Shown: positions 8,101 through 51,906 of the stretch, piece by piece
Position numbering within the stretch: the first letter of the stretch is position 1
Layout of the letters: every line of letters starts with the position of its first letter
Assembly: GCA_903946925.1 (NCBI GenBank)
Contig: CAJAXK010000057.1
Coordinates: 1,807-65,806 of the forward strand
DNA from: an uncultured Bacteroidales bacterium
GTDB taxonomy: Bacteria > Bacteroidota > Bacteroidia > Bacteroidales > UBA4417
Reading direction: 5' to 3'
Length of the DNA: 64,000 nt
The notes under the pieces: model-generated
What the model was told of the DNA's origin: nothing
The model's input: only the letters and a program-made list of their open reading frames with translations
The model's database searches: none
Position numbers and translations under genes: made by a program

Positions 8101-8536
8101 TGGCTGCAAGGGCAACGCCGTTTACATCGCTGTATTCGCAGTTTCCCGGCGTCTGTGTGTCCCAAACAAGCGAAGTGATACTTGGCAAAGCATTGAACCT
8201 TAATTCAACCAATGTGCCGTTTCCAAGGTTAGCGGCGGTTGTCCTGGCCCAGCCTATCACGACCTGGTTGCCGGAAGAATAAATTGTCATCAGCCCCCCG
8301 TTCAATTCAGGGTTTAGGTTCTGGTAACCTGAATAGGTCAATTTGGTGTTGTCGAAATTCAGCAGCAGCGAAATAGCACCGATACCATTGCAATTGGCAA
8401 CAGTTATAGGAACCACAATTTCGCCCGGACAGCTTGTGACCGATCCTGCGGTTGTGCTTATCGTTTGGGCATTAATGAAACCCGCCCAAATTATCAGCAA
8501 CAGCAGTGGTATTCGATGTAAAATCAGAGTTTTCAT
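5162..8536 (-). CDS. secreted scaffold-like protein: 4 cohesin-like modules alternating with Ig-like modules + C-terminal LEGLY/dockerin-like module
   Basis: 1124-aa ORF with a signal peptide. Four ~130-aa units fit the cohesin pattern (PGEIVVPITVANCNGIGAISLLLNFDNTKLTYSGY...LVELRFNAL...CEYSD). The first three are each followed by a ~95-aa Ig-like unit (SFSVSATGTSIAYLWQYSTNGGNTW...YKYKCRLTG). The C-terminus carries DINQDGFVNILD and DVNGDAVVDALD and ends ...FIMVKKP. Confidence 0.8.
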   Translation of the reverse strand: MKTLILHRIPLLLLIIWAGFINAQTISTTAGSVTSCPGEIVVPITVANCNGIGAISLLLNFDNTKLTYSGYQNLNPELNGGLMTIYSSGNQVVIGWARTTAANLGNGTLVELRFNALPSITSLVWDTQTPGNCEYSDVNGVALAATFVNGTETINQPPIIGAEPLDKSVLVGQNTSFSVSATGTSIAYLWQYSTNGGNTWADLANNATYTGVTTPTLGITNCLLGYNGYKYKCRLTGTCTPVIYSNMVTLSVVNPITSTLPTGSFCPGNIVVPVKVTNFTGVASFSLAFAYNPSVLTYTGFQNLNGALSGGNFVANANNGMVYMTWSATASATFTNDTLVKLLFTAATGSSGLTWDLATSGNCEYSDSNGLAIATDFVNGNETIYGVPVVTAHPTDKIIAKGQNTSFSVTATASGIGYLWQVSSDGGSTFTDLSNTATYSNVTTATLGITNAQLSISTYQYRCKISGTCTPIVYSNPAVLTVLPNILTTCGTATVCPGQVIVPINVTDFIGVASFSLALNYNPSVLIYTGYQNLNAAITGGMINVNAVGGKVYLTWSNNSAATIATAGLLVELKFTGIPGTSSLTWDTQTTGNCEYSDINGLVIFSTWTNGNITINQPPALTNQPVNQSIYAGGSTSFSVAATGTSVSYQWQVSTNGGTNWSNLTNVSPYSGVNSASLGINPAAVGMNGYLYQCVVSGTCTPSVISNTSQLTVTQAAITTTSGTISNSCTGNLLVPINVTNGSNVGSISLTMVFDTTKMVFDGYQSPNAALTGGLLVVNRSANKVYLTWASTTAANLGNGVLIQYRFKAISGISASLSWDTQTTGACEYSDVSGAVITSFYVNSNISVVANALIVDAGTDLNMSPGSSVQLNGTATGGSTPYTYLWTPSAGLNNPAISNPLASPTETTTYTLTVTGNNVCSGSDLITVAVASVPHTLNIKVLLEGLYDGPNAMQQAKDANGPHFGVGIADHIDVELHSATNYSQIVYTASSVDLLTNGQATITVPGNYNGSYYITIKHRNSIETTSANPVSFSAATIDYYFDNPAKAYGSNLKTMAAGQYVVYGGDINQDGFVNILDMDSCESQSSSFGSGYIEQDVNGDAVVDALDLILTDNNAAAFIMVKKP

Positions 8537-8549
8537 AACGAAATGATTT

Positions 8550-16130: not shown

Positions 16131-19100
16131 TTAAAAAGCCCTGATTGCACGTACGAGTGATCCATCATGCTTATAGCCATCTCCTGTATAATTTAAATAA
16201 AAGATATGGAAATATGCACGTTGAGAATTTAACTGAGACGAACTCCAGTACATAGCACTTCCAAAACCTCCGATTGCAGTTCTTTGTTGATACATCTGAA
16301 GTAGTTCATTTAATGAAGGTAAAAACCAATCATTATATCCATTCAATACTAGCTCATCACAAACTCGGGCGGCAGTTCCAGCTTCAGCGCATCCGGCCAA
16401 AATTGCATTCGTATTAGCTTGCCCTGTGCCAAAAGCTGGGGAGGTTCCAATTGAAGTATTTGTACAACCCCAGGGTACATATACTGCAGTTTGATCGGTT
16501 GTAGCTGAAATAAGTCCGTGCTGGCCTGTGCCATCGATATAAAAGATTATTCCTCCTTGGTAACTCTGTCCAATTGCAAGTGCTACATTGGTGCTAAAAG
16601 TTACTTCGTTGCCATAAGCCGTACCTGAGCTGTTTGTGGCATAAGCTCTGACATAGTAGGGTGTATTTGGTGTAAGACCACTAAGTTGGCTTACAAATGC
16701 ACCTGTTCCGCTTCCATCCGAGGTATGACTCTCAGTTATAGTAGGATTTGCAGTAGTACTCCAACAAACTCCCCGAGCGGTAACAGATCCGCCACCGTCT
16801 GAAGTTATGTTCCCACCACCGGTGGCGTTGGTTTGACCTGTGTTTGTAATAGTTGAAGTGGTAACAGTAGGGATTGTGGATGAGCTACCGGCATCTTTTA
16901 AACAACGGACCGCGATGCCATACGATTTAGAATGGTACGTTAAATTGCAGTAAATAAAATAGGAATAAAGGAATAAACCGTCGGAAACATTGCTTTGTGT
17001 GCTTGACCATAACAAAGCTTCCTGCCCGCGACCGATAAGGTTTGCAAATTCATTATGAATGGCTCCGGCAGCATGTATTTTTAAATCAGAGTTCCACGAA
17101 CCGCTCCAGTTTGTCCAGCCCCCATTAGCGTCAACATTGAACCATTCTTGATAAGTTGGAATGCGCCATCCGGAACCTAACTCTAAAGAGCAGGGGTCAT
17201 TGGCTGCAATCCAATTAGAAGGTTCTTCTATCCAAGTTATCCAAGTTGTGTTGGGTGTACGCGTTGTACCATCATGTTTAAACCCTTGTATTCTGTTAAA
17301 TTGCCAGTACCAGCCTGCAGATTCTTCGGATACATCGCTAACGTATGTTGCCTGGTGATCGGCACCAAGGTTACTGGTTATCCAACATTTAGTTGGTTCC
17401 CCGAGTATGCCCGTAACCGTACCATAAGCTACGGTTTTTGTAACAGGTGCGACTGATCCGGTTACATGATTGATGGTGAGTGTATTGCCGCAAGCAAATG
17501 CACATGCTGAAGTGGTTTGCATGAGTGTAACAGGAGTAGAATTGCCACAGGCACTATAAGCCCAAGCATATCTTGTGTATACCGTATTACAGATTAGGGA
17601 TGTTTCGGTTTTGGTTGTGGTTGTGGTCATATCTATAGCCGAACTATAATCATTGCTGGTATTCCATTTGTAACCAGTGGCTCCTGAAACTACATTCCAG
17701 TTCCAGACAACCTGAGTTGCTGACGGCACATGGGTTCCGGCAGGTGGGGTTGCAGGTGGATTTAAGGATGTGGTTTGGGTAAGTGTGATGGGAGTAGAAT
17801 TGACACAGGCACTGTAAGCCCAGACATATCTGGTATATGCTGTATTGCAGATTAGGGATGTTTCCGTTTTGGTTAGGGCAGTAGCCATATCGGTGGCCGA
17901 AGCATAATCATTGGTGGTATTCCATTTATAACCTGTTGCACCTGCAACAACATTCCAGTTCCATACAATTTGGGTTGCAGATGGAACATGTGTTCCGGCT
18001 GTGGGTGTTGCTGGCGGATTTAAAGAGGTGGTTTGGGTAAGAGTAACTGCTGTAGAATTTCCGCAAGCACTATATGCCCAGGCATATCTTGTATAAGCCG
18101 TGTTGCAGATTAACGATGTTTCCGTTTTTGTTAGGGCAGTAGCCATATCGGTGGCCGAAGAATAATCATTGGTGGTATTCCATTTATATCCTGTTGCCCC
18201 TGTAACTACATTCCAGTTCCAAACTATTTGGGTTGCTGATGAAATATGTGTGCCAGTAGTTGGTGTTGCTGGAGGGTTTAAAGAAGTGGTTTGGTTAAGG
18301 TTTACTGGCGAAGAATTGCCGCAGACACTATAAGCCCAGGCATATCTGGTATATGCCGTATTACAGATTAAGGAAGTTTCCGTTTTGGTTAGGGCGGTGG
18401 CCATGTCGGTGGCCGAAGCATAGTCATTGGTGGTATTCCATTTGTATCCTGTTGCCCCTGCAACTGCATTCCAGTTCCAAACTATTTGGGTTGCTGATGG
18501 AATATGTGTGCCAGTAGTTGGTGTTGCTGGTGGGTTTAAAGAGGTAGTTTGAGATAAGGTAACAGGATCTGATAAACCACAGTCGCCATAAGCCCATACA
18601 TAACGTGTGTATGTTGTATTGCAAGTAAGCCCGAACTCTTGATTCATGGTACTTGTTCCCAAATCGGTAGCTGATCCATAATCATTCGAGGTATTCCATT
18701 TGTAACCAGTTGCACCTAAAGCCGCATTCCAATTCCAAGTAATCATCTGTGGCATTGAGAAATGAGTGCCAGAGGTTGGGGATGCTGGTGGGTTTTCTGG
18801 TGTGCTCTGGGTCAGTAGCTCTGGTGTGGAATTGCCACATGCGCTGTAAGCCCATACATAACGTGTGTAGGGAGTATTGCAGGTAAGGCCAAACTCTTGG
18901 TTCGTGGTGTTTGTCCCCATGTCGGTAGCCGATGTGTAATCATTAGTGGTATTCCATTTATAACCTGTGGCACCCGAAACTGTGCTCCAGTTCCACATAA
19001 TCATTTGTGGCATGGCTATATGGCTTCCTTGGGTTGGGGCAAACAAAACATCACCTGCGGTAGTATGTGTTAAAACTGTTGCGGTTGAAGCTCCGCAGGA

Positions 19101-19595
19101 ACTAAAAGCCCAAATATATCTTGTGTAAGGTGTTAAGCAATCAAGATTTGTTTCTGTATAAAAAGTACTTGTCCCAACATCAAATGCGGTTGATATATCA
19201 TTTGTAGTGTTCCATTTGTATCCTAATGCATTTGTAACCATATTCCAATTCCACTCAATTTGAGATGAGGTAGCTGTATGGCTTCCTGATGTAGGAGATA
19301 AAGGTCCCAAGCAGTTAGCACTTAATGTGTACCATTCGCCCGAAATAAACAACGATAAAGCACCGGTCCCATTTGCACAATCGGTACAATAAACCATCAA
19401 CCCATCAGCAGGATTTGGTATAGCACCCATTTCTGCCCTTGTCATCCGAGGGATCAACAAACCTTTGTTAGTGGATTTAACATCCAGCATTGCTGAATTG
19501 TCGGGATTAGTACCATCAATATTTATGGAAACCTGTGAAAAGAGCACGCCATTGATGAACAAAATCAGTATCAGGGAAAAAAGATTTTTCTTCAT
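16131..19595 (-). CDS. secreted protein: 7 tandem FN3-like repeats + Fibrobacter-paralogous (FISUMP)-like domain + FN3-like + DUF1566-like lectin-fold domain
   Basis: I moved the start to the ATG at 19595 (MKKNLFSLILILFINGVLFSQ, a signal peptide). The track ORF begins at an upstream GTG at 19658 that overlaps the conserved motif. There are seven 86-aa repeats (WNWN..GATGYKWNTTNDY..TRY.WAYS.CG). CWITSNLGA...DPC..LGSGWRIPTYQEW is FISUMP-like. GGIIFYIDGTGQHGLIS...NGYNDWFLPSLNEL...YWSS...VRAIRAF is DUF1566-like. Confidence 0.8.
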   Translation of the reverse strand: MKKNLFSLILILFINGVLFSQVSINIDGTNPDNSAMLDVKSTNKGLLIPRMTRAEMGAIPNPADGLMVYCTDCANGTGALSLFISGEWYTLSANCLGPLSPTSGSHTATSSQIEWNWNMVTNALGYKWNTTNDISTAFDVGTSTFYTETNLDCLTPYTRYIWAFSSCGASTATVLTHTTAGDVLFAPTQGSHIAMPQMIMWNWSTVSGATGYKWNTTNDYTSATDMGTNTTNQEFGLTCNTPYTRYVWAYSACGNSTPELLTQSTPENPPASPTSGTHFSMPQMITWNWNAALGATGYKWNTSNDYGSATDLGTSTMNQEFGLTCNTTYTRYVWAYGDCGLSDPVTLSQTTSLNPPATPTTGTHIPSATQIVWNWNAVAGATGYKWNTTNDYASATDMATALTKTETSLICNTAYTRYAWAYSVCGNSSPVNLNQTTSLNPPATPTTGTHISSATQIVWNWNVVTGATGYKWNTTNDYSSATDMATALTKTETSLICNTAYTRYAWAYSACGNSTAVTLTQTTSLNPPATPTAGTHVPSATQIVWNWNVVAGATGYKWNTTNDYASATDMATALTKTETSLICNTAYTRYVWAYSACVNSTPITLTQTTSLNPPATPPAGTHVPSATQVVWNWNVVSGATGYKWNTSNDYSSAIDMTTTTTKTETSLICNTVYTRYAWAYSACGNSTPVTLMQTTSACAFACGNTLTINHVTGSVAPVTKTVAYGTVTGILGEPTKCWITSNLGADHQATYVSDVSEESAGWYWQFNRIQGFKHDGTTRTPNTTWITWIEEPSNWIAANDPCSLELGSGWRIPTYQEWFNVDANGGWTNWSGSWNSDLKIHAAGAIHNEFANLIGRGQEALLWSSTQSNVSDGLFLYSYFIYCNLTYHSKSYGIAVRCLKDAGSSSTIPTVTTSTITNTGQTNATGGGNITSDGGGSVTARGVCWSTTANPTITESHTSDGSGTGAFVSQLSGLTPNTPYYVRAYATNSSGTAYGNEVTFSTNVALAIGQSYQGGIIFYIDGTGQHGLISATTDQTAVYVPWGCTNTSIGTSPAFGTGQANTNAILAGCAEAGTAARVCDELVLNGYNDWFLPSLNELLQMYQQRTAIGGFGSAMYWSSSQLNSQRAYFHIFYLNYTGDGYKHDGSLVRAIRAF

Positions 19596-19655
19596 AGTAC
19601 TATCATTAAAAAAGTTGGGGATGTGGAAGTAAAAGTAGAACAGTTGAAAGTCTAT

Positions 19656-19680
19656 CACAATAGCCCAATCGGGTCATTTT
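19656..19680 (-). promoter_or_regulatory. conserved intergenic motif, copy 3 (AAAATGACCCGATTGGGCTATTGTG on the minus strand)
   Basis: Lies between the response-regulator stop (19686) and the 19595 start. It differs from copies 1 and 2 at two positions that keep CCY...RGG complementary. Confidence 0.5.
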
Positions 19681-42490: not shown

Positions 42491-43048
42491 TTAAACGAGT
42501 TGGATTGAAAACACTTTCACATACAATGGACCTTCGCGGCGGAGTATGCTTTCGTAGAGTATGATTTCGGAAACACTTTCTTCCTGAATTTCAACCGTAT
42601 TGTATTTTCCGATGATTTGTTGAAAAAGCTGTTTGTCCTTCAGTTCTTTTATACGGCCAATGGTTAAATGAGGGACGAAATTCTGGCGGTCGCGCGGGTA
42701 TCCGCATGTTACGAGACGGGCAAACAGATTATTGGCCAACATTTCCAGTTCTTGGTTTTTTTCGATTCCAAACCACACCACTTTTGGGTCGTAACGGCTC
42801 CCGAAAATGCCGGTATTTGAAATATTAAGTGAAAAGGGCTTCGATTTTTTCAGCGATTCTTCCGTCGCCAACTTAATAGCAGGGATTAAATTTTCATCTG
42901 TTTCACCAAAAAATTTCAGTGTAAGGTGCATGTTTTCGGGTTCCACCCATTTGATACGCTCATGGCGTAGTGAAGAGGAAATTTCGTTGAATAGGCTGAT
43001 ATACCGGGCAGTGGGGTGGATTTTAATGGCTGCGAACAAACGTTTCAT
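42491..43048 (-). CDS. thpR: RNA 2',3'-cyclic phosphodiesterase (2H family, LigT/ThpR)
   Basis: 185 aa with two H-x-T/S-x motifs: HLTLKFFG and HLTIGR. Confidence 0.88.
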   Translation of the reverse strand: MKRLFAAIKIHPTARYISLFNEISSSLRHERIKWVEPENMHLTLKFFGETDENLIPAIKLATEESLKKSKPFSLNISNTGIFGSRYDPKVVWFGIEKNQELEMLANNLFARLVTCGYPRDRQNFVPHLTIGRIKELKDKQLFQQIIGKYNTVEIQEESVSEIILYESILRREGPLYVKVFSIQLV

Positions 43049-43107: not shown

Positions 43108-43181
43108 GGGGCGTTAGCTCAGTTGGCTAGAGTGTCAGACTGGCAGTCTGAAGGTCATGGGTTCGACTCCCATACGCTCCA
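43108..43181 (+). tRNA. tRNA-Ala (anticodon GGC)
   Basis: Hand-folded cloverleaf. Acceptor GGGGCGT/ACGCTCC has the G3:U70 Ala identity pair. D-stem is GCTC/GAGT. Anticodon stem TCAGA/TCTGA carries the loop CT-GGC-AG. T-arm is ATGGG-TTCGACT-CCCAT. Discriminator is A. CCA is not encoded. Confidence 0.92.
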
Positions 43182-43193
43182 CAACCAAGAAAG

Positions 43194-43543: not shown

Positions 43544-44245
43544 TTAAACAGAGATTACTTTATGTCCCTGTTCGTCAATGATGATTTTTTTTCCATCTAA
43601 CTGTGTAACCAGTGCAAAGCCATTGTAAAAAGGTTCAACTGCTAAATATCTTTGTTGGTAAATTTCGTTTCCGCTTATATCAATGTGATGCCAACCATAT
43701 TTATCCAAAGCAGTTGCAAAGTTTTTGTGAAAAACCCCAAGATCCAAAAAAGCTTTATTATTTAGAAAACTCCCCTTTGTGTCAATATGCCTGTATAGTC
43801 CGTCGTCTGCTTTTGCACAGGCATTACCATCTTTGAAATCGCCACAATAGATAAAACTGCCTGTGTATATTCTTTTTCCATCAAGGTCAATATGAAAATA
43901 CTTGTTGTCGTTGCCCCTTACTGAACATAGGTTTTCCTGATAATTGCCTGTCCAATTATATGATTGGTCATAAGCCTTTAAGCCTTTGTCTGTCAAGTGA
44001 AACCAATTGTCGGCTTTAACAACCGTAGCCCTGCTGCAATAATAGCCAAAAGTCCGAGTGAACCTTTCATCGTAAAGTTGATTACCAATACTGTTAATGT
44101 GATATGAACCGCTTTCATCTTTTACAGGAGCAAGTCCTGGCGAATGAAATTTTAAAACTTCAATAAACACACTTCCGAAAAGCGGTTGTTCATTAAATAG
44201 AAAATGTGTCTTGTCTGCTGATACTTTTATGTCTTGCCAATTCAT
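43544..44245 (-). CDS. WG-containing repeat protein
   Basis: 233 aa. Repeats are of the type YHINSIGNQLYDERF, YFHIDLDGKRIYTGSF, LYRHIDTKGSFLNNKAF and GWHHIDISGNEIYQQRY. A 4-nt overlap (ATGA) joins it to the upstream gene. Confidence 0.65.
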   Translation of the reverse strand: MNWQDIKVSADKTHFLFNEQPLFGSVFIEVLKFHSPGLAPVKDESGSYHINSIGNQLYDERFTRTFGYYCSRATVVKADNWFHLTDKGLKAYDQSYNWTGNYQENLCSVRGNDNKYFHIDLDGKRIYTGSFIYCGDFKDGNACAKADDGLYRHIDTKGSFLNNKAFLDLGVFHKNFATALDKYGWHHIDISGNEIYQQRYLAVEPFYNGFALVTQLDGKKIIIDEQGHKVISV

Positions 44246-45207
44246 TTTTTGAAAATTAGAATGGTTTGTAATTGATTTAACTTTTTGTCTTCTTGAAAAT
44301 TAAAACCGAATTCTTCACATAGTTTAATGTATTCAGTGGAACTGCGCTCAAAACTTTGGCACATTACAGCCATATTCAATGACAATAACCATAATTTGAT
44401 ATTAATTTTATCTGTGCAATTCTCAATAACATATAAAGTTCCATTAGAAGGTAATGCATGGAAGCAATTTTTAAGAATAAGTTTCGCTTTTTTATTATTC
44501 CAGTCGTGCAAAACTCTGGAAAGAATTATCGCTTCTGAACACTTGGGGATTCCCTCAAAGAAATTCCCACCTATTCTTTCAATAGTTTTGTATGAAACTT
44601 GTTTAATTACTTTATCTAAATCGAAAAGTACGCATCTTGCAGTATGATTTTTTTCTTTAATCAGATTTAACGCAGCACCATAGCCACCGCCAACGTCCAT
44701 TATTGACTGGTGAATGCTAAAATCGATAATGTTAGGAAGTTCTTTATAATCATCTATTGCATATTCTGACATTGCTTTATGATAATTCTTTAGTTTTTCA
44801 GGATTATCATTCAAATACTCGAAGTATGTTTTTTGGTAAATCTGTTCAAATGAGCTTTTACCTGATTGAATCGAACATTTAAGATGTTGCCATGCTATAA
44901 GGTGTTCGCCAGACCAATTTAAGCAAGCATAATACAGCCCCCCTTTATTTTCTTTTCTTAGGAGATTTCCCCTTTCTGTAAGCGTGTAATTATTATTTCC
45001 CAATTCGTTTATATAGTTATTTTCTGTTAGAAATTCGAGCAAATTCAACAAACTTTTTAAATCCCACTTGTTATTTTGTAATAATTTATCCAAACTGTTT
45101 TGCCCTTCAAATATTTTATCAAATAATTGTAACTGGCAAGCCGCATTTACAGCCAGGTATTTCCAATGTTCTGTGAACAAAGATTTTAGTTCTTTTTTCG
45201 CTTCCAT
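44242..45207 (-). CDS. class I SAM-dependent O-methyltransferase (COMT/Methyltransf_2 type with N-terminal dimerisation domain)
   Basis: 321 aa. Motif I is MDVGGGYGAALNL; also FDLDKVI and ILSRVLHDWNNKKAKLILKNCFHALPSNGTLYVIE. Confidence 0.85.
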   Translation of the reverse strand: MEAKKELKSLFTEHWKYLAVNAACQLQLFDKIFEGQNSLDKLLQNNKWDLKSLLNLLEFLTENNYINELGNNNYTLTERGNLLRKENKGGLYYACLNWSGEHLIAWQHLKCSIQSGKSSFEQIYQKTYFEYLNDNPEKLKNYHKAMSEYAIDDYKELPNIIDFSIHQSIMDVGGGYGAALNLIKEKNHTARCVLFDLDKVIKQVSYKTIERIGGNFFEGIPKCSEAIILSRVLHDWNNKKAKLILKNCFHALPSNGTLYVIENCTDKINIKLWLLSLNMAVMCQSFERSSTEYIKLCEEFGFNFQEDKKLNQLQTILIFKK

Positions 45208-45209
45208 GA

Positions 45210-46643
45210 TTAATCGAGTAATTTGTTTTTAAGAGATTCTATTTGACTCGCTGAAAGCCCACACCATTGCAAATAATTTTCAATCCCTCCTTTTTCCTTG
45301 ACGATGTCAAGAACCAAATTCAAACGATAAAGCTTTACGTCTACTTCACTTACCAGGTAATCTACTTGAATATCAGTGAGTGGTGTATCGGCAAGCAAAT
45401 GAAGCAGTGAAATAAAAATTCCTGTTCTGTCTTTTCCAGCAAAGCAATGAATGGCTACAGAACCGTTGCGCTCATTTAATATGGCTTCCATTGCAGTTTT
45501 GATTTTGTCCTTACACCCAATTGCAAAAAAGCGGTATGCGATTTCTTCATTTGTCCCTTGATGATGATTTTGTTTGAACCAATCGGGTTGGTTCCAGGGA
45601 TCGAGTTGTGCTTTTACATAGTTGAACTTAGATAGCGTTCGATCTAAATACGGCATTTCTTTAATTTCTTTTTCTGCTCTTAAATCAATTATTGTTTTTA
45701 TTCTTTTTTCTCTCAGCAATTTTTCAAAGTGAGATTCATCTTGAAAAAGAGTCAATGTTGCAGTTCTATATATTTTTCCGCTTTTTATTCTAGGATTGTG
45801 CGTGCAGATGTCTCGAAAGTTCCAAAAATAATCTCTGTCAAAAATCCATTCGCAAAACTGTTTTAGTTCAATAAACTTTTCATAGCTCACCAATGGTTGA
45901 ATTGCAATATAAAAGAAATCTAGTAATTTTCTTTTTTGCTGATTGGCTTCAGGCAAAAAAAGGGTTCCTTTTAAACCATAAAAAGAGTCTTGTTCTTCCT
46001 TGTTAATAACATTTGGAATAAAATATTTAGGCAAATAATGAAATTTGGTGTGTCCTTTTGAAGAATGTTTCAACTGAATGGCAACTTGTAAAGCAATGTT
46101 GTAGAAAAAATAAAATTGGTAACCATCACTTCTGCGGTGCATTCCCGAGCAACTTTCAAATTCGTATATGAATTTGTCAATCAATTCAGCAATTCCTTTT
46201 TCATTTTGGTGAGGAGTTTTATTTAGGTTATAATCTCTAACATGTTGATAGAGATAAGTTCCAATATTATACTTTGCTGGTCGTTTTTCAAATAGAATAG
46301 TGTCGGCTATGTTTGATATTTCAGAACTCAAATAATTTCTGTTAATCTCTGAAATGTGATTGCAAACAGCGAATTCTATTTTTGGTTGTGCTTTGAAATA
46401 AGCCACAACTTTATTTCGCAATGCAACCTCACGAATATCAACAAGTTCTTGCTGAAATTCATTTCGCAACGCTTCATTCAGAAATTTGGATTCAAATTCA
46501 CCATCAACCAAAAGTTGAATATCAATGTCTGAATTCGGCGTTGCCTCATTTCTTCCAAATGAACCATACAGAAGTGCAACATCTATACCTTTCACTTGCG
46601 GAAATAATTTTTGGAGCAGTACTATTGTTTGTAATTGTTTCAT
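45210..46643 (-). CDS. fusion protein: Pol-beta-superfamily (GlnD/GlnE-like) nucleotidyltransferase + tyrosine-phosphatase-family domain
   Basis: 477 aa. The N-terminal LLYGSFGRNEATPNSDIDIQLLV matches the G-S/G-x-G-R-x-E-x3-5-SDIDL NTase signature. The C-terminal NFRDI...YRTATL...IIDLRAEKE and AIHCFAGKDRTGIF fit the CX5R loop of the Y_phosphatase3 pattern. Confidence 0.8.
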   Translation of the reverse strand: MKQLQTIVLLQKLFPQVKGIDVALLYGSFGRNEATPNSDIDIQLLVDGEFESKFLNEALRNEFQQELVDIREVALRNKVVAYFKAQPKIEFAVCNHISEINRNYLSSEISNIADTILFEKRPAKYNIGTYLYQHVRDYNLNKTPHQNEKGIAELIDKFIYEFESCSGMHRRSDGYQFYFFYNIALQVAIQLKHSSKGHTKFHYLPKYFIPNVINKEEQDSFYGLKGTLFLPEANQQKRKLLDFFYIAIQPLVSYEKFIELKQFCEWIFDRDYFWNFRDICTHNPRIKSGKIYRTATLTLFQDESHFEKLLREKRIKTIIDLRAEKEIKEMPYLDRTLSKFNYVKAQLDPWNQPDWFKQNHHQGTNEEIAYRFFAIGCKDKIKTAMEAILNERNGSVAIHCFAGKDRTGIFISLLHLLADTPLTDIQVDYLVSEVDVKLYRLNLVLDIVKEKGGIENYLQWCGLSASQIESLKNKLLD

Positions 46644-48997
46644 AAAGATATTGGTTTGCGCATGTTACATGTTTTACATATTGGTTTCATTTTATATTTG
46701 CTTACCAGTTCCATATAAACAAAACCTTTTAAAACATCTTCAATCGATGTGGTTGAAATGTTTCCAAAGTCGCCTAAAGACTTTCTCAAATTGTCAGGCG
46801 CACAACATGGCGAGATATTCCCTGTTGCTGAAACCCAAAGTTCTTTTGTCAGAAAAGGGCACTCATATTCTTCGGGAAGTTCTTTAGTTTCATTGTCGTG
46901 AAGCGGAATAATGTTTTCTAAGATTACTTTTTCGCCGTTTGGTTTTCTAAATTTTTCCTGTGCATCAATAGCTTGCTTTACAAATACATTCCATTGCATT
47001 ACACTCTCTTGATTTGCTTTCATTGAGAGGTTTTTGATTTCCTCAAAATGTGCCCAAAGCTGATGTCCTTTTACCCTGTCAACACCAAGTGAAGCAGCCA
47101 ATTTTATAATCTCAGCCAACTCGTGCATGTTGTTTTGCATAAAAGTTAATTGAAATGTAACTCTACAGAAATATCCTGTTTTGGCAAAATGCTCATCACG
47201 GAATTTTATGAATGACTTAACATTTTCGATGGCTTGGTTAAAGTCAATTCCAATCATCACTTTTTGGGCTGTTTCTTCTGTTGCTCCGTTCCAGCTTATT
47301 TTTATATCTATAGTGTTTGGCACTATCAACTTTGCCCATTCTTGTACAGTTTTTTTAGGAAATGTCCCATTGGTAGTGAGATTGATTTTAATTTTTGTTT
47401 GCTCAGCCAATTCAAAAATTTTGTCAAACTCTTTGTATAGTAAGGGTTCTCCCATTGTGGAAGGTATGATTTCCTTTACTCCCAATTTTTCTGCCTGGTG
47501 AAAAACCTCTTCCACATCTGCAAATTTCATCCGTCTGCGTTTTACTCCGGTTTCCTTGAAAAGAGATGGAATAAATTTGCTGTATGGGCTGTGCTCCTCA
47601 CACATCACACATTTGAGGTTACAATCTTCCGGATTGGTATCAATGGTAATACGCCAGAGATTTTTTGAAGGGATAAATTGACGATATATTTTCTCCAATT
47701 CTTTGCAATGGTTATGAATATCAGGCACATTGCCATCTTCTGAATACAAATATCCTCTTTGCCCCAACCCTTTCATCAGGTTAGGGTTTTCAACAGCAAA
47801 CCTTAACTGCTCAGCCAAAGAATAGATGTTTCGATGTTCAAATAATAATCCGTTCAAATGGTGTTGAACATATTCTTTCATTCCTCCAAAATCAGCTGTT
47901 ATTACAGGCACTCTGCACGACTGTGCTTCATGAATTACCAATGGAGAGTTTTCGCCCCAAATGGAAGGAACCACTATGCAATCTACTTGTGAAAAAACTT
48001 CATCTGCTAAATTCTTGTTAATGTATTCCCCCTTGAACTGTATTGATAAATTGTATTCTCCGGCTATTTCCATCAGTGCTATAGTGCTTTGTTGAGCTTT
48101 TGATCCCCAAATTAAAAGTTCTGCATCACCCTCTAACTTTTTAAAAGCTTCAATCAATAAGTTGATTCCTTTGGATGGGACATGAGTGCCAATATATCCG
48201 AAGGTAAAATGTTTATTTCTTTTTCTGTTATAGGTTGGTGTCAAGTAATGGGTAGGGAAACCATAATCTAAATAGGTCAGTTTATTTTCTGGAACGTTAA
48301 ATTCTGCAATAAATCGATTTCTTAAATAGTGCGAAGGAGCAATGAACGCATCTACTTTATTTATTACTGACCGGGTTTCATCCATTCTGGCATCAATCCA
48401 ATTCTCCCAATATTGCTGATCATTTAATACATCTTTTCTACAAGGAATTTTATGCTCAAATTCATAGGAAAGCATATTATCAAAAGATGATGTATAACCG
48501 GAATGCAAAGGTTTATAACAAATACTTGCACATTTGCAGTTTTCCTGTTTATCACATAATTGCCAGACCTTTTCTCCATCCGAATTACGCTGTAAGAACT
48601 GGCCCCGTGGGCACATCAACCAAAAGTCATGAAGTGTAAATACAACCGGAATCTGCTTTCTGTTTAACTCATCAATAATACCAGTTGAAAGATGATTCAA
48701 ATGGCCAATATGGGCTATATCTGGTTTAATATTATCGAGTAGTTCAGCAAATTGACTGTCAATTTCCCTATGTCTGAAACCATCTTTGCCTTGGGCCATA
48801 TTCACAAAAAACAGAGTTAAATTCTCTTTTAATTTTTGTGTTCTGATTGTAAAATCAGGGGCATAAGGGTTCTCTTCGCGAGTAAAAACAAAAACTTCAT
48901 TTTCTTTTGATAATTCTTCGCAAATGGATTGGGTGTAAACTTCCGAACCAGCATTGTAGTTTGGTGGATAGCCGTGAATGATTTTGAGAATACGCAT
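46640..48997 (-). CDS. fusion protein: GT4-type glycosyltransferase + radical SAM/SPASM domain
   Basis: 785 aa. The N-terminal half (MRILKIIHGYPPNYNAGSEVY...; ENSPLVIHEAQSCRVPVITADFGGMKEYV) is GT-B / Glycos_transf_1-like. The C-terminal half has CNLKCVMC (CxxxCxxC), GEPLL, and a SPASM-like tail CPFLTKELWVSATGNISPCCAP...CKTCNM. A 4-nt overlap joins it to the downstream gene. Confidence 0.85.
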   Translation of the reverse strand: MRILKIIHGYPPNYNAGSEVYTQSICEELSKENEVFVFTREENPYAPDFTIRTQKLKENLTLFFVNMAQGKDGFRHREIDSQFAELLDNIKPDIAHIGHLNHLSTGIIDELNRKQIPVVFTLHDFWLMCPRGQFLQRNSDGEKVWQLCDKQENCKCASICYKPLHSGYTSSFDNMLSYEFEHKIPCRKDVLNDQQYWENWIDARMDETRSVINKVDAFIAPSHYLRNRFIAEFNVPENKLTYLDYGFPTHYLTPTYNRKRNKHFTFGYIGTHVPSKGINLLIEAFKKLEGDAELLIWGSKAQQSTIALMEIAGEYNLSIQFKGEYINKNLADEVFSQVDCIVVPSIWGENSPLVIHEAQSCRVPVITADFGGMKEYVQHHLNGLLFEHRNIYSLAEQLRFAVENPNLMKGLGQRGYLYSEDGNVPDIHNHCKELEKIYRQFIPSKNLWRITIDTNPEDCNLKCVMCEEHSPYSKFIPSLFKETGVKRRRMKFADVEEVFHQAEKLGVKEIIPSTMGEPLLYKEFDKIFELAEQTKIKINLTTNGTFPKKTVQEWAKLIVPNTIDIKISWNGATEETAQKVMIGIDFNQAIENVKSFIKFRDEHFAKTGYFCRVTFQLTFMQNNMHELAEIIKLAASLGVDRVKGHQLWAHFEEIKNLSMKANQESVMQWNVFVKQAIDAQEKFRKPNGEKVILENIIPLHDNETKELPEEYECPFLTKELWVSATGNISPCCAPDNLRKSLGDFGNISTTSIEDVLKGFVYMELVSKYKMKPICKTCNMRKPISL

Positions 48998-49026
48998 TTA
49001 GTTATGAATTATTTGTTTTTGGAAAG

Positions 49027-49048
49027 GGTTGGGGAGCGATCCCCAACC
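49027..49048 (-). promoter_or_regulatory. perfect 9-bp stem / 4-nt loop hairpin between the micro-ORF and the GT-rSAM gene
   Basis: ggttgggga-gcga-tccccaacc. It lies 2 nt after the micro-ORF stop and 29 nt before the 48997 start. No U-tract follows on the coding strand. Confidence 0.7.
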
Positions 49049-49050
49049 AA

Positions 49051-49146
49051 TTACTTCTTAGGTTTCGGAGGATTATTACCTCTACCACCGCCGGATGGTT
49101 TGCCAGTTGTGCTTGGAGCGTTTACTGGTTTCGTTGTTTTAGACAT
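49051..49146 (-). CDS. micro-ORF, 31 aa (candidate precursor peptide)
   Basis: Hand translation gives MSKTTKPVNAPSTTGKPSGGGRGNNPPKPKK*. The ATG is 3 nt after the stop of the preceding micro-ORF. It lies directly upstream of the rSAM/SPASM gene. Confidence 0.4.
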   Translation of the reverse strand: MSKTTKPVNAPSTTGKPSGGGRGNNPPKPKK

Positions 49147-49149
49147 TGA

Positions 49150-49227
49150 TTATCTATTATTGTGATGCCTCCTTTTTTGCGTTTCGGCTGCCGCACTATA
49201 AGTTTTATGGACTTCCAGTTGATCCAT
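49150..49227 (-). CDS. micro-ORF, 25 aa (candidate peptide)
   Basis: Hand translation gives MDQLEVHKTYSAAAETQKRRHHNNR*. The ATG is 1 nt after the TAG of 49229..49531. Confidence 0.3.
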   Translation of the reverse strand: MDQLEVHKTYSAAAETQKRRHHNNR

Positions 49228-49228
49228 T

Positions 49229-49531
49229 CTAATTAAGTATTTGGATAAAATAATTCTGTTTTTTTATAATATGAGTAAGTACATTTGAGAAAAATGCTCT
49301 TATAAGTTTACCGTTCTTCACGGTTAGACACAAGTTGGGCAGTTCCATGTTTTCGGGAAACGAAATTTTATTTCGTTTCATCCATTCATATCTTGCAATA
49401 ATGACAATGCTTTTTTGAAGATGTTTCTTCTTTGCAGAAGCCAATGCAACTTTGATTGCTTTTTGGTCGGGTGAAAACTTAACAGCTTTACATTCATTGT
49501 TTGAACTAATTGAAAATTTTGTTGTGTCCAT
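49229..49531 (-). CDS. hypothetical 100-aa protein (paralogue of 49639..49941)
   Basis: ORF-track entry. Its C-terminal NLCLTVKNGKLIRAFF...YFIQILN resembles ETCLVLIVKKNLILRGYW...HFQILYK in the neighbour. No family recognised. Confidence 0.55.
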   Translation of the reverse strand: MDTTKFSISSNNECKAVKFSPDQKAIKVALASAKKKHLQKSIVIIARYEWMKRNKISFPENMELPNLCLTVKNGKLIRAFFSNVLTHIIKKQNYFIQILN

Positions 49532-49638
49532 TTTGATTTGATCTTTGATTGATTTTATTATTAGAAATGAAGTTTTAGTATTCGTATTAAATTATAGCAC
49601 CTGACTTAAAAAATTAACTTATCAAGGATACTGTTTTT

Positions 49639-49941
49639 TCATTTGTACAAGATTTGAAAGTGAGCATTCTTTTCCTTGCTGAACAAATAGCTGATATGGT
49701 CGCACCAGTAGCCTCTTAGAATCAGATTCTTCTTAACGATAAGGACTAGACAAGTTTCATCATCCCTGGCCACCCCTTTCCTTTTCAAGAAGGAAGGCAA
49801 CACAAGCACAATATCTTTTTCGCATTCGGAGCATTCTACATATGGTAGGATTTTGTTGAGTATTTGGTCGTCAATACTTCTATCCCATTGGCTAAACATA
49901 AAGTGGGTTGTTTTCCTAAACTCTAAAATCTGTTTATTCAT
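49639..49941 (-). CDS. hypothetical 100-aa protein, first gene of the divergent operon
   Basis: ORF-track entry. The TTHFMFSQWDRSIDDQILNKIL segment is loosely reminiscent of DUF4258/RelE-like small proteins; I am not confident in that resemblance. Confidence 0.55.
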   Translation of the reverse strand: MNKQILEFRKTTHFMFSQWDRSIDDQILNKILPYVECSECEKDIVLVLPSFLKRKGVARDDETCLVLIVKKNLILRGYWCDHISYLFSKEKNAHFQILYK

Positions 49942-49965
49942 TTTCTTTAAATTTTAATTATGCTT

Positions 49966-49983
49966 AGACATAAAGTGTGCCAA
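49966..49983 (-). promoter_or_regulatory. candidate sigma54 (-24/-12) promoter, strong -24 and weak -12
   Basis: The minus strand reads TTGGCAC-ACTTT-ATGTC. The -24 TTGGCAC is perfect, but -12 is ATGT instead of TTGC. It lies ~25 nt upstream of the 49941 ATG, facing away from the sigma54-activator gene. Confidence 0.35.
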
Positions 49984-50079
49984 AATACTAAAAATAGTTT
50001 AACAACTTGAATATCAGTACCATAAATAAATTATTATAAATAAATAAAATACCTATAAGTAAATTAATACCTTTACAAT

Positions 50080-51906
50080 ATGAAAAATATTTATATAACC
50101 TGGCATTATACAACCCACGGTGTTGCATACTTAAAGCACATTCTTAGCCAATTCTACCTAATTCGAGAACTTCCAATTGAAATTAATTTTAGTCAGTTAG
50201 AGCAAGAAGAACTTAATTCAACTTTTAACAGTCCTAAATCAACAGGATTTCTTTTTGACGAGATAATTTATCTAACTGCACCACAAAAGGCATTTGATGG
50301 AGTTTCAAGCAGGAGATTCAGTCATAGAACAACTGTTTTGGATGATCCTGAAATTAAAAAAAGTAAATTGGGAATAGTATATCATGAACTTATCGAAATT
50401 TATCCAGAACATAAGCTGTCTGAGGAAATCAGTTTTATAGAAAACAACTATCCCGACCTGCTATCAGAGTACAAAGAATTGGTGTGGCGTAACATTCAGC
50501 ATTATCCAGTTGAAGAACAGATTAAGTGGTTAACAGAATATTCAAACTTTAAAAATGTATATTCTAATAAATTTAAGGTTGTTGAATTAAAGATTGATGA
50601 CTTTAGAAATGAAAAGCAAATTTCAGATGTAATAAGTAGATGGATTAGACATTACTTTTTCAGGCAAAAGAATTGTCGGCCAATAATTAATGTTTCACTT
50701 GGAAGTAATGAAACGCAAGTGGTATGGCATATACTGGCAGAAGCAGGCCAGTTGCCTGACACTACAAGATTTATTAAAACATATGATGATAAAAATGATA
50801 AGCCTGAAAAACGATTTAAGCAATTTTCAATTCAAGAAATTGCAACTAATCTAATTTCTACGATTGGAGCTGAGTTCAAGATATACGATGACACAAAATC
50901 ACCTTCTCGGGCTTTGGCTAATAAAAAAATGGAAACCTATCTTAAATTGGGTTTTTCGATTTTGCTAATTGGGGAAAGAGGAATCGGAAAATCAAAAATT
51001 GCTAGCGAAGCAAAGCAAAAGTTTGATCCCCAAAGTCCTTTCGTAGAAGCAAATTGCGCCTCATTTGATGAAGATAGTAAAGCAGAATCGGAGTTGTTTG
51101 GGTATGAAAAAGGAGCATTTACCGGAGCTAACGCTGTAAAAATAGGTCTTTTAGAAGCAGCAAATGGCGGTATTCTGTTTCTTGATGAAATTCATCATTT
51201 ATCAAAGCTTGTTCAGGCTAAACTAATGAAGGCATTGCAGACTGATAAGAAAAACAAAATGGCCATCCGGAGAATAGGCAGTAATAAAGAGATCAAAGTT
51301 GAATGCCGATTAATTTTTGCAACTAATAAAAGTATTGTTGAATTAAGAAATGAATTACTGCCCGATTTTTACGATAGAATTGTACAGTATGTTGTAAACA
51401 TCCCACCGATAAGAAACAATATTAAAGATAGGCCGTCTGATTGGGAAAAAGTTTGGAGTGATTTGAATTTAAAAGGGATGGATGGAAAATGGCTACGAGA
51501 ACCTCCTGATGATGAAAAATTGAATGAATGGCTATTAACTCTCCCATTGTATGGGAATTACAGAGATTTGCAAAAAATAGCCATCAGTTATCATGCTTTT
51601 AATCATTTTGACATGGAAACAAAGGGTATGTTGATTGAGGCCAATGCTTTCCAGTATGCAAAAAATGAATTTGAAAAATATCACTCACTTGTAGTCCAAC
51701 CTGAAAATGAGAAATTCAATTTCAATAACAGCCAAACAACAAAAGAAATGTTAGCTGACTATTTATTTGAATTGCAAAATTGGGCTGTGTTGAATTATAA
51801 ATCACGAAAAGCTGCAATAGAACATTTTCGGTTATTGGGAGATACAGTTGCTCCTGAAACCTTTAATAACTGGAAGAATAGGGATTCTGTAAAAAAGAAA
51901 AAATAG
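50080..51906 (+). CDS. sigma54-dependent transcriptional activator with an RtcR-like (CARF-like) N-terminal domain
   Basis: 608 aa. The AAA+ core has LLIGERGIGKS (Walker A), FGYEKGAFTGA (the GAFTGA sigma54-contact loop) and GGILFLDEIHHL (Walker B). The ~290-aa N-domain contains INVSLGSNETQVVWHILAEAGQLP, which parallels IHITTGTHVAQICWFLLAEARYLP of E. coli RtcR as I recall it. Confidence 0.75.
   Translation: MKNIYITWHYTTHGVAYLKHILSQFYLIRELPIEINFSQLEQEELNSTFNSPKSTGFLFDEIIYLTAPQKAFDGVSSRRFSHRTTVLDDPEIKKSKLGIVYHELIEIYPEHKLSEEISFIENNYPDLLSEYKELVWRNIQHYPVEEQIKWLTEYSNFKNVYSNKFKVVELKIDDFRNEKQISDVISRWIRHYFFRQKNCRPIINVSLGSNETQVVWHILAEAGQLPDTTRFIKTYDDKNDKPEKRFKQFSIQEIATNLISTIGAEFKIYDDTKSPSRALANKKMETYLKLGFSILLIGERGIGKSKIASEAKQKFDPQSPFVEANCASFDEDSKAESELFGYEKGAFTGANAVKIGLLEAANGGILFLDEIHHLSKLVQAKLMKALQTDKKNKMAIRRIGSNKEIKVECRLIFATNKSIVELRNELLPDFYDRIVQYVVNIPPIRNNIKDRPSDWEKVWSDLNLKGMDGKWLREPPDDEKLNEWLLTLPLYGNYRDLQKIAISYHAFNHFDMETKGMLIEANAFQYAKNEFEKYHSLVVQPENEKFNFNNSQTTKEMLADYLFELQNWAVLNYKSRKAAIEHFRLLGDTVAPETFNNWKNRDSVKKKK

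Follow-up and report, generated by a model that had tools for sequence, protein, structure and literature searches.

In the RtcR-RtcBA system of E. coli and Salmonella, an activator built of a diverged CARF N-domain, a sigma-54 AAA+ module with a GAFTGA loop and a C-terminal DNA-binding end is encoded divergently from the operon that it regulates, which is preceded by a sigma-54 promoter. On sensing damaged tRNA, RtcR switches on RNA repair enzymes (PMC7790460, PMC9650030). RtcR-like CARF-AAA-HTH proteins that are not linked to Rtc, often found near restriction-modification (R-M) genes, were reported by Makarova et al. 2014 (PMC4012209), and Bell et al. 2024 found RtcR homologues at the head of CoCoNuT/defence superoperons, next to small RelE-like genes, and proposed that the homologues sense RNA fragments with cyclic-phosphate ends (PMC11090510). 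Such CARF-sigma-54 switches are known at RNA repair genes and, by genomics only, at restriction-type defence operons. Here we describe a locus of an uncultured Bacteroidales bacterium (contig CAJAXK010000057.1) in which the same switch appears to be dedicated to a biosynthetic-looking cassette: a regulator of 608 aa faces an operon that encodes small proteins, a glycosyltransferase-radical SAM fusion, a phosphatase fusion, an O-methyltransferase and a WG-repeat protein. Positions are those of the whole 64,000-nucleotide stretch of DNA that was analysed, referred to as the window.

The preliminary description of this DNA held that RtcR-type regulators normally sit next to rtcBA. This is incomplete, as Rtc-unlinked forms have been published and PADLOC models the subfamily. 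Because such regulators were already described (PMC4012209, PMC11090510), rewiring of the switch is a known theme; what is new here is the cargo and the composition of the module, whereas the regulatory scheme itself is already known. No description of the cassette was found in the curated libraries or in the literature searched for the cassette and for RtcR_PspF1, in line with the earlier remark that no system of this composition had been described.

All open reading frames (ORFs) were found exactly at the coordinates first given for them, and the ORF list, Pfam and NCBIfam agree with the set of domains originally proposed. The spacer between activator and operon measures 138 bp, as reported. 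ATGA overlaps had been described along the operon; they occur at two of the three enzyme-gene junctions, and the third is a 2-nt gap. The elements of the locus are as follows.

50080..51906 (+): enhancer-binding protein of the RtcR_PspF1 type, 608 aa, with a CARF-like N-domain, a sigma-54 AAA+ module and a C-terminal part that aligns with the HTH end of the PADLOC model
50080..50934 (+): predicted CARF-fold N-domain, residues 1-285, with a helical insert at about residues 67-160 (AlphaFold2, Foldseek, Pfam)
50917..51390 (+): sigma-54 interaction AAA+ module, residues 280-437 (Pfam PF00158; motif alignment across loci)
50050..50074 (-): candidate upstream activator site AAAGGTATTAATTTACTTATAGGTA (cross-locus motif; putative function)
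49967..49982 (-): candidate sigma-54-type promoter TGGCACACTTTATGTC (sequence and cross-locus count)
49639..49941 (-): S100A, 100 aa, first gene of the operon (alpha/beta model; 25 homologues)
49229..49531 (-): S100B, the second 100-aa protein (clustered in 9 loci)
49051..49146 (-): micro-ORF of 31 aa, MSKTTKPVNAPSTTGKPSGGGRGNNPPKPKK (related peptides in other regulator-bearing loci)
49027..49048 (no strand assigned): GC-rich hairpin GGTTGGGGATCGCTCCCCAACC with a 9-bp stem (sequence)
46640..48997 (-): GT4-radical SAM/SPASM fusion (Pfam)
45210..46643 (-): fusion of a Polbeta-type nucleotidyltransferase and a Y_phosphatase3 domain (Pfam)
44242..45207 (-): Methyltransf_2 O-methyltransferase with dimerisation domain (Pfam)
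43544..44245 (-): WG-repeat protein, 233 aa (Pfam WG_beta_rep, 22.5 bits)

Compared with RtcR-RtcBA, the locus shares the divergent arrangement, the three-part layout of the activator and, as a candidate, the sigma-54 promoter before the operon. In the CARF motif that follows strand 4 the similarity is recognisable, and the Pfam and NCBIfam RtcR alignments begin at residue 166. The differences lie in the first ~165 residues of the activator, which are not alignable, in the ~95-residue helical insert and in scores below the RtcR cut-offs. Moreover, rtcA and rtcB are missing from the operon, their place being taken by the GT4-radical SAM, phosphatase, methyltransferase and WG genes, and a ~100-aa protein and a micro-peptide are added. 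With the RtcR_PspF1/PspF2 regulators near R-M or CoCoNuT genes, the locus shares the regulator subfamily and frequent R-M or McrBC neighbours, and with the CoCoNuT-type systems also a small protein beside the regulator. The published small proteins are BrnT-like RelE proteins, whereas the one in the window has no detectable RelE or BrnT similarity. The published regulators are co-directional with their operons and not divergent from them, and the cargo in the window consists of biosynthetic-type enzymes instead of nucleases and helicases.

The regulator and its candidate promoter

For comparison, one genome per species (GTDB) was scanned with the GT4-radical SAM fusion and the 80 best loci were clustered by all of their ORFs (here and below, L and a number denote a comparison locus); counts of regulator types cover the 63 loci with enough upstream sequence, and counts of phosphatases and O-methyltransferases cover 74 loci. 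The activator proved to be tightly co-conserved with the operon and not with rtcBA. All seven activator homologues that were looked up (56-100% identity) are divergent from a ~100-aa gene, followed by the GT4-radical SAM, phosphatase, O-methyltransferase and WG genes, and all 11 GTDB loci with a long CARF-bearing regulator have it flanking the same cassette divergently. An RtcB or RtcA domain was found neither in the operon nor in any related locus examined. Altogether, more than 120 clusters of full-length activator homologues occur across Bacteroidota at 56-75% identity.

Regarding its family, the activator carries the complete sigma-54 AAA+ core that had been claimed for it: Sigma54_activat matches at 4.7e-39 (Pfam), and the GERGIGKS, GAFTGA and ILFLDEIH motifs are all present. 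The PADLOC model RtcR_PspF1--CARF_AAA_HTH (PDLC01994) matches residues 176-582 at 1.2e-76 and 256.7 bits, corresponding to model positions 70-453 of 468; PADLOC sets no curated cut-off, and the first 70 positions of the model are not aligned, so that the match covers the AAA+ module, the C-terminal (HTH) part and the C-terminal half of the CARF domain. Scores against RtcR itself are far lower, with 145.5 bits against a cut-off of 650 for the NCBIfam family NF038308 and 16.8 bits against 23.1 for the Pfam family PF06956 (residues 166-252). Because of the PADLOC match, the activator is, as judged from its sequence, best placed as a member of the already catalogued RtcR-like subfamily RtcR_PspF1 and not as RtcR itself; thus the likeness to RtcR that was first noted holds, but membership does not.

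The N-domain had also been described as CARF-like, which agrees both with the PADLOC match and with the predicted fold. An AlphaFold2 model of residues 1-285, built on an alignment of 23 homologues, reached a predicted local distance difference test score (pLDDT) of 84.8 and a predicted template-modelling score (pTM) of 0.86, and shows a Rossmann-like CARF fold. About 30 of the top 35 Foldseek matches in the PDB are CARF proteins, among them Csm6, Csx1-Crn2 CARF-HTH, Card1, Csa3, Can2, Cam1, a ring nuclease and VC1899. In addition, the 23 homologues show no variation at the two CARF signature positions, which are WHYTTHG (following strand 1) and NVSLGSNETQVVWHIL (following strand 4).

The candidate promoter lies 25 nt upstream of the first start codon of the operon and has a perfect -24 element, TGGCAC; its -12 half contains TT and reads GT where the consensus has GC. 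In operon orientation, TGGCA[CT] was detected in 15 of the 20 loci whose regulator has a GAFTGA-like loop and in 0 of 19 whose regulator has none; in a 16th locus (L066) the site lies upstream of an ORF start that had been called too long. The complete TGGCAT-N5-TTGCA occurs in L071 only. A scan with the full consensus TGGCAC-N5-TTGCW, allowing up to two mismatches, missed the intergenic site and gave 51 matches window-wide against 38.6 expected by chance, and therefore the case for the promoter rests on the comparison across loci. As the -12 element has no canonical GC, sigma-54 dependence rests on the -24 element, on the correlation with the GAFTGA loop and on geometry.

Concerning this geometry, a second element emerged when the upstream DNA of the loci was aligned on the -24 site. 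In the window it is an imperfect palindrome, AGGTA-N6-TACTT, with a third AGGTA; it begins at a distance of 6 nt from the start codon of the activator, and ~80 bp separate its centre from the -24 GG downstream. AGGTA-N6-TACCT (with the extra AGGTA) was detected at the same position in at least 13 loci with CARF-bearing activators, in spacers that are otherwise unalignable and AT-rich, and the short regulators with GAFTGA loop have a related motif, ATGTA...TACAT. A distance of ~80 bp between upstream site and -24 element is typical for enhancer-binding proteins. Together, the candidate site and the -24 element would reproduce the standard geometry of such proteins, with the site lying over the 5' region of the regulator's own gene. 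We infer from this arrangement that the activator binds the AGGTA site and that the operon depends on sigma-54.

The regulator gene itself is variable among the 63 loci:

11 of 63 loci: long CARF-bearing regulator
5 of 63 loci: CARF-less relative (310-357 aa) keeping a GAFTGA-like loop
18 of 63 loci: CARF-less relative with the loop lost
29 of 63 loci: no regulator

Because the GAFTGA loop is lost, the 18 relatives of the third group cannot act through sigma-54. In three loci (L016 ~9598, L020 ~9598, L031 ~9603), where the regulator has neither a CARF domain nor a GAFTGA loop, the palindrome TGGCAA-N4-TTGCCA or a near variant stands at the regulator start. It may be a different operator, for the sigma-54-independent relatives of the regulator.

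Altogether, the divergent operon 49941..43544 is very probably driven by a CARF-gated, sigma-54-dependent activator of the RtcR_PspF1 branch. The activator would bind the AGGTA palindrome beside its own start codon and, upon a signal at the CARF domain, would use ATP and the GAFTGA loop to open the sigma-54 promoter with its TGGCAC -24 element, so that the divergent operon is expressed. By analogy with RtcR, the domain would most likely bind a nucleotide- or RNA-end-type ligand that signals RNA damage or infection. As the predicted promoter and the upstream site are conserved and precisely mapped, this regulatory part is directly testable in cultivable carriers, which include Algibacter pectinivorans, Winogradskyella, Lutibacter, Flavobacterium lacus and Capnocytophaga granulosa ATCC 51502.

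Small proteins and the enzyme cassette

Between the candidate promoter and the enzyme genes lie several small genes. A ~100-aa protein of the S100A, S100B or S96 type was found in 26 of 34 regulator-bearing loci and in 0 of 29 regulator-less loci. S100A has 25 homologues at 59-80% identity and no match in Pfam, NCBIfam or PADLOC; its AlphaFold2 model, built with database homologues, is alpha/beta (pLDDT 82.5) and has no significant fold match in the PDB (best E 0.14). An H-F...R-x-I-D pattern had raised the idea of a DUF4258/BECR-type (RelE-like) RNase toxin. No Pfam match at E<=10 and no PDB fold was found for it, and, because a confident model has no significant structural neighbour, this idea is unsupported. 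S100B, likewise free of curated-family matches in NCBIfam and PADLOC, replaces S100A at the equal position in other loci. The two 100-aa proteins had been called paralogous, which could not be established: BLASTP gave nothing, and hhalign only E=0.007 over 54 C-terminal columns.

The micro-ORF of 31 aa encodes a peptide without Cys that carries the motif G-[RA]-G-N-N-P-P near its C terminus. Related peptides stand just upstream of the GT4-radical SAM gene in six further loci (L007, L010, L017, L038, L054 and L065), all of them regulator-bearing, whereas in the 29 regulator-less loci none was detected within 1.5 kb upstream of the enzyme gene, a search that very divergent or distant peptides could escape. 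The micro-ORF has no match in PADLOC. A second micro-ORF, of 25 aa, had been listed together with it; only the 31-aa one is conserved elsewhere, and the 25-aa one was not seen in the comparison loci. The hairpin starts 3 nt past the stop codon of the 31-aa micro-ORF and has no T-run on the operon strand, the terminator scan flagging it on the opposite strand only. A role as attenuator or processing site would be speculative, and the peptide itself could be a leader or regulatory peptide or a substrate.

In Flavobacteriaceae, the modules begin with a conserved 47-aa Ser/Ala/Lys-rich peptide, MSKSK.MT..AASRIQ...GSFA.RAQSAA, in place of the GNNPP micro-ORF (L005 9696..9839, L006 9693..9836; also L036, L037, L039, L060 and L070). 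This peptide shows weak similarity to the seed-maturation-protein repeat (Pfam SMP, E ~0.01-0.02). Both kinds of small Lys/Pro/Gly-rich peptide, GNNPP type and SMP-like type, follow the regulator as the ~100-aa proteins do. From this distribution, the ~100-aa protein or proteins and the small peptide appear to belong to the regulatory module. Conceivably, the ~100-aa protein acts on the ATPase as a feedback partner, in the way that PspA acts on PspF. The CARF-less relatives of the regulator, consisting of the AAA+ module and C-terminal end, are PspF-like in architecture and still pair with a ~100-aa protein; the case differs from PspF-PspA in that this protein has no PspA similarity, that the interaction is conjecture and that the 18 short forms have lost the GAFTGA loop.

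In two Algibacter species (L036, L037), the peptide, the S96 gene and the enzyme cassette are alike and the regulators differ: one is a 606-aa CARF regulator with a TGGCAC site, the other has 319 aa, no GAFTGA loop and no site. Thus, the Algibacter regulator appears to have been swapped or truncated recently.

Turning to the enzymes, Pfam bears out the domains first assigned to the GT4-radical SAM/SPASM fusion, the nucleotidyltransferase-phosphatase fusion, the O-methyltransferase and the WG protein. The GT4-radical SAM fusion matches Glycos_transf_1 at 1.4e-27, Radical_SAM at 1.1e-14 (55.3 bits, cut-off 29.5) and SPASM at 1.2e-08 (35.6 bits, cut-off 21.5). Its GT4 part spans residues 1 to ~440 and has the EX7E motif, the radical SAM motif CNLKCVMC lies at residues 459-466 and the SPASM domain at residues 713-778; four orthologues all keep C459, C463, C466 and the Cys residues of the C terminus. 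Relatives conserve the fusion at 47-72% identity. All NCBIfam models stay below their cut-offs (best W_rSAM_matur, 66-67 bits against 380), and the radical SAM domain is not a viperin, scoring 26.6 bits against a cut-off of 180 for NF038283 and 33 bits for the PADLOC model of prokaryotic viperins (pVip). The nearest solved GT4 enzymes are sucrose-phosphate synthase, PimB', GlgM, BshA and MshA, which use phosphorylated or small acceptors.

The second fusion combines a Y_phosphatase3 domain (8.2e-31), whose motif HCFAGKDRTG marks it as a Cys-phosphatase and whose nearest solved phosphatases are MptpB and the PFA-DSP/Siw14 type, with a nucleotidyltransferase of motif GS...DIDI. The nucleotidyltransferase had been taken for a GlnD-type enzyme; GlnD models match only at E ~0.01, and the best Pfam and NCBIfam matches are of the Polbeta/MntA type (minimal MNT). 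The O-methyltransferase is of the small-molecule type (Methyltransf_2, 1.2e-35). The WG protein scores just below the Pfam cut-off of WG_beta_rep, its homologues in other loci match the same model, and neither NCBIfam nor PADLOC has a curated family for it. Against PADLOC-DB v2.0.0, the cargo gave only weak generic matches (pVip for the radical SAM domain; MNT-type models at <=25 bits for the nucleotidyltransferase), with none for the O-methyltransferase, the WG protein, S100A, S100B or the micro-ORF, and it is not part of any anti-phage system catalogued there. No curated family claims any cargo protein.

Relatives of the GT4-radical SAM fusion occur patchily in at least 310 species, ~0.17% of species, over seven phyla. 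The 80 best loci are mostly from Bacteroidota, but also from Planctomycetota, Spirochaetota, Myxococcales, a cyanobacterium, Verrucomicrobiota, Ignavibacteria and an insect endosymbiont. The core of GT4-radical SAM fusion and WG protein is found in 72-74 of the 80. A Pfam-confirmed phosphatase is present in 68 of 74, as nucleotidyltransferase-PTP fusion (33), PTP alone (5) or His_Phos_1 (30), and the O-methyltransferase in 36 of 74, fused to the WG protein in the cyanobacterial, verrucomicrobial and endosymbiont loci. Some loci have a NodU-type carbamoyltransferase or an NAD epimerase/dehydratase as accessory genes. Judged by gene content across these loci, the cassette is an autonomous and apparently horizontally mobile module, to which the regulator, the ~100-aa protein and the small peptide are an optional add-on.

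The endosymbiont locus (L086, Candidatus Symbiodolus clandestinus, 1.5-Mb genome) has a split GT4/radical SAM pair, the WG-methyltransferase fusion and an epimerase/dehydratase. That the cassette is kept in this reduced genome is unexpected for a dispensable accessory cassette.

Possible functions of the cassette

Because the phosphatases are interchangeable, WG-methyltransferase fusions exist and carbamoyltransferase and epimerase/dehydratase genes accompany some cassettes, we favour sugar- or nucleoside-type chemistry over peptide modification. The peptide or small-molecule tailoring pathway suggested at the outset is thereby narrowed: the peptide type is less likely, as the micro-ORF follows the regulator and lacks Cys, and the sugar/nucleoside accessories fit the small-molecule type. 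In such a pathway, the GT4 domain would glycosylate a phosphorylated acceptor and the fused radical SAM/SPASM domain would then remodel the product; the phosphatase would remove a phosphate, the O-methyltransferase would cap the product and the WG protein would act together with the methyltransferase. The purpose would probably be inducible stress or anti-phage chemistry, viperin-like in its logic. That the four downstream genes form a mobile cassette that makes or modifies a sugar- or nucleoside-type small molecule for this purpose is, in our estimate, a close call that tips slightly to the doubtful side. Taken as a whole, the explanation of regulation and cargo stands about evenly between right and wrong.

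Two described kinds of pathway resemble this proposal. Prokaryotic viperins, accompanied by nucleotide kinases, make a modified nucleotide in defence; they share with the cassette a radical SAM enzyme and kinase or phosphatase helpers, and pVip with or without kinase is physically inserted into the operon in L053, L059 and L089. The radical SAM enzyme of the window differs from them in not being a viperin and in having a SPASM domain and a fused GT4. Nucleoside and sugar antibiotic clusters such as that of tunicamycin contain a glycosyltransferase, a MoaA/PqqE-type radical SAM enzyme, an SDR (short-chain dehydrogenase/reductase) epimerase/dehydratase, a phosphatase and a methyltransferase. The likeness here is one of gene-function inventory, including the optional epimerase/dehydratase and carbamoyltransferase; the cassette has no acyltransferase, acyl carrier protein or export genes, is much smaller and is under CARF-sigma-54 control.

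The inserted viperin genes all lie inside the divergent operon under the RtcR-like regulator. In L053, a true viperin (9128..9988; NF038283, 288.7 bits against a cut-off of 180) stands between S100A and the GT4-radical SAM gene, L059 has a member of the same viperin cluster (c19) in the same position, and L089 (7132..8551) has a split viperin with a viperin-type cytidylate-kinase-like gene between its ~100-aa gene and the GT4-radical SAM gene. Six of the seven looked-up loci are flanked by defence-type genes, namely McrBC, type I R-M, a DndD-like gene, a PLD gene with a second RtcR-like regulator, and helicases. The McrBC genes of L005 and L006 do not form the operon of the regulator, because they are convergent with it. 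In 14 of the 80 species loci, R-M, McrBC or SNF2-PLD genes lie no more than 10 kb away, and in 8 there are integrases or recombinases. An inducible defence or stress role of the cassette is therefore plausible.

The second RtcR-like regulator is that of L007 (1099..3855; PADLOC RtcR_PspF2, 1.3e-120), which is divergent from a PLD-family gene and a DUF4407 gene. It lies directly downstream of the cassette, so that two CARF-sigma-54 switches are adjacent in one island.

Several observations weigh against the proposed regulation and function. On the side of the regulator, the Foldseek matches to CARF proteins are modest (probability up to 1.00, best E 1.5e-3, TM 0.27-0.39), which we attribute to the ~95-residue helical insert that interrupts the CARF fold, and a profile search of the N-domain against PDB sequences gave no meaningful match to solved CARF structures. 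The -12 GC is absent in the window and in most loci. Furthermore, the regulator is missing in 29 of the 63 informative loci, and 18 more have a relative without CARF domain and GAFTGA loop. On the side of the cargo, SPASM domains typically occur in enzymes that modify peptides, and the enzyme gene has a conserved micro-ORF beside it. The window's own neighbours are not defence genes. Lastly, 140 neighbour ORFs sampled at random around the 80 loci were mostly ordinary genes, with a few integrases and helicases and one restriction enzyme; this heterogeneous sample did not bear out an enrichment of defence islands. Since the sampled genes were mostly ordinary, the defence claim was lowered. It is a tentative and rather doubtful proposal that the cassette is an undescribed inducible antiviral or conflict pathway making a modified sugar-nucleoside-type effector by viperin-like logic, in one lineage switched by a CARF-sigma-54 sensor that reads nucleotide or RNA-end signals arising from infection, the ~100-aa partner and the micro-peptide taking part in the switch. 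If the cassette does make an antiviral or stress metabolite, viperin would no longer be the only chemical defence based on radical SAM chemistry but would be joined by a second one, and the cassette would offer a tractable case for the ligands of RtcR-like CARF domains outside Rtc and for the role of WG-repeat proteins.

The alternative that survives best is a metabolism unrelated to defence, in which the cassette makes a glycoside, a compatible solute, a cofactor or a cell-surface sugar modification and the regulator answers a physiological signal that has nothing to do with phage or RNA damage. Pathways of the sucrose-phosphate, glucosylglycerate and mycothiol types classically pair a GT4 enzyme with a phosphatase, and the nearest solved GT4 enzymes of the fusion fit this pattern. 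The largely housekeeping neighbour sample, the defence-free context of the window and the JGI label of the fusion ('glycosyltransferase involved in cell wall biosynthesis / MoaA/NifB/PqqE family') point the same way. Against it stand the patchy distribution over seven phyla with integrases or recombinases nearby, the insertion of viperin with or without kinase in three loci, the R-M or McrBC genes adjoining many loci and the lack of membrane, export or polymerisation genes. The regulator family, moreover, is otherwise tied to R-M and defence (PMC4012209, PMC11090510). On balance, we regard this alternative as fairly unlikely.

A pathway for a ribosomally synthesised and post-translationally modified peptide (RiPP) would be suggested by the SPASM domain, by the nearest NCBIfam families, which include PqqE, the mycofactocin maturase, ScmF and sactipeptide maturases (all matched far below their cut-offs), by the GNNPP micro-ORF kept directly upstream of the enzyme gene in at least seven loci, and by the hairpin that follows it. 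Here, the 31-aa peptide would be O-glycosylated on its Ser/Thr run by the GT4 domain, cross-linked or modified in another way by the radical SAM/SPASM domain and tailored by the nucleotidyltransferase-phosphatase fusion and the O-methyltransferase. A precursor should co-occur with its maturase, but GNNPP peptides were found in only ~7 loci, all regulator-bearing, and not in the searched upstream regions of regulator-less ones; the Flavobacteriaceae carry the unrelated 47-aa SMP-like peptide, at another position. Cys is absent from the peptide, the loci encode neither a protease nor a transporter or recognition-element protein, the accessory genes are of the sugar/nucleoside type and the conserved partner of the enzyme is the WG protein and not a peptide, which together make this pathway improbable.

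An equally improbable alternative is the healing or modification of RNA, in particular tRNA, in which the phosphatase would remove 2',3'-cyclic or 3' phosphates, the 3' ends would be rebuilt by the nucleotidyltransferase and, once repaired, protected by the methyltransferase in a Pnkp/Hen1-like manner, the GT4/radical SAM enzyme would modify a base and RNA would be bound by the WG protein. It would suit this scheme that some phosphatases of the PTP fold act on RNA and that the queuosine of eukaryotic tRNA is glycosylated by enzymes of the GT4 family. So would the phosphatase being the most conserved accessory function, with the nucleotidyltransferase fused to it in 33 loci. The regulator is RtcR-like, and for RtcR the sensing of damaged tRNA is a precedent (PMC7790460, PMC9650030). 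Nevertheless, there is no ligase, kinase or cyclase, the O-methyltransferase is of the Methyltransf_2 small-molecule type with a dimerisation domain and not Hen1-like, the nucleotidyltransferase is dispensable (histidine phosphatase or PTP only in 35 loci), the carbamoyltransferase and sugar epimerase/dehydratase do not fit, and adjacency to thpR is unique to the window.

A phage-borne system was considered as well and rejected, since IMG/VR has only one contig that encodes the fusion. This contig (L092, UViG_2917530833_000001, 8001..10290) has it at 60% identity and may be a prophage or host DNA.

Surroundings of the locus

Downstream of the operon lie two further genes of the window:

43108..43182: tRNA-Ala(GGC)
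42491..43048: thpR (TIGR02258, 142.7 bits against a cut-off of 65.7)

Their placement had been noted as possibly meaningful. The adjacency is present in the window but is not conserved: no other locus has thpR, and the tRNAs found close by vary widely in identity. A functional link to tRNA-Ala or thpR was therefore rejected and the placement regarded as incidental. Two metagenome contigs of the same species (L001, L002) are 99.98% identical to the window from 43167 rightwards and diverge fully leftwards of this position (L001 1..1631, L002 1..254), which falls within the last 16 nt of the tRNA-Ala gene. Left of the breakpoint, L001 has small ORFs including a Phage_CI_repr-like gene. As the sister strains diverge at 43167, the 3' end of tRNA-Ala looks like a strain-variable integration site of mobile elements.

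Elsewhere in the window, three sigma-54-like matches to TGGCACACATATTTCA (18240, 18498 and 18756, spaced by 258 bp) were discarded as promoters, being coding repeats of a 1175-aa protein. This protein (16131..19658, minus strand) is predicted to be secreted and consists of about eight tandem modules of ~86 aa (GATGYKWNTTNDY...), with a DNA period of 258 bp.

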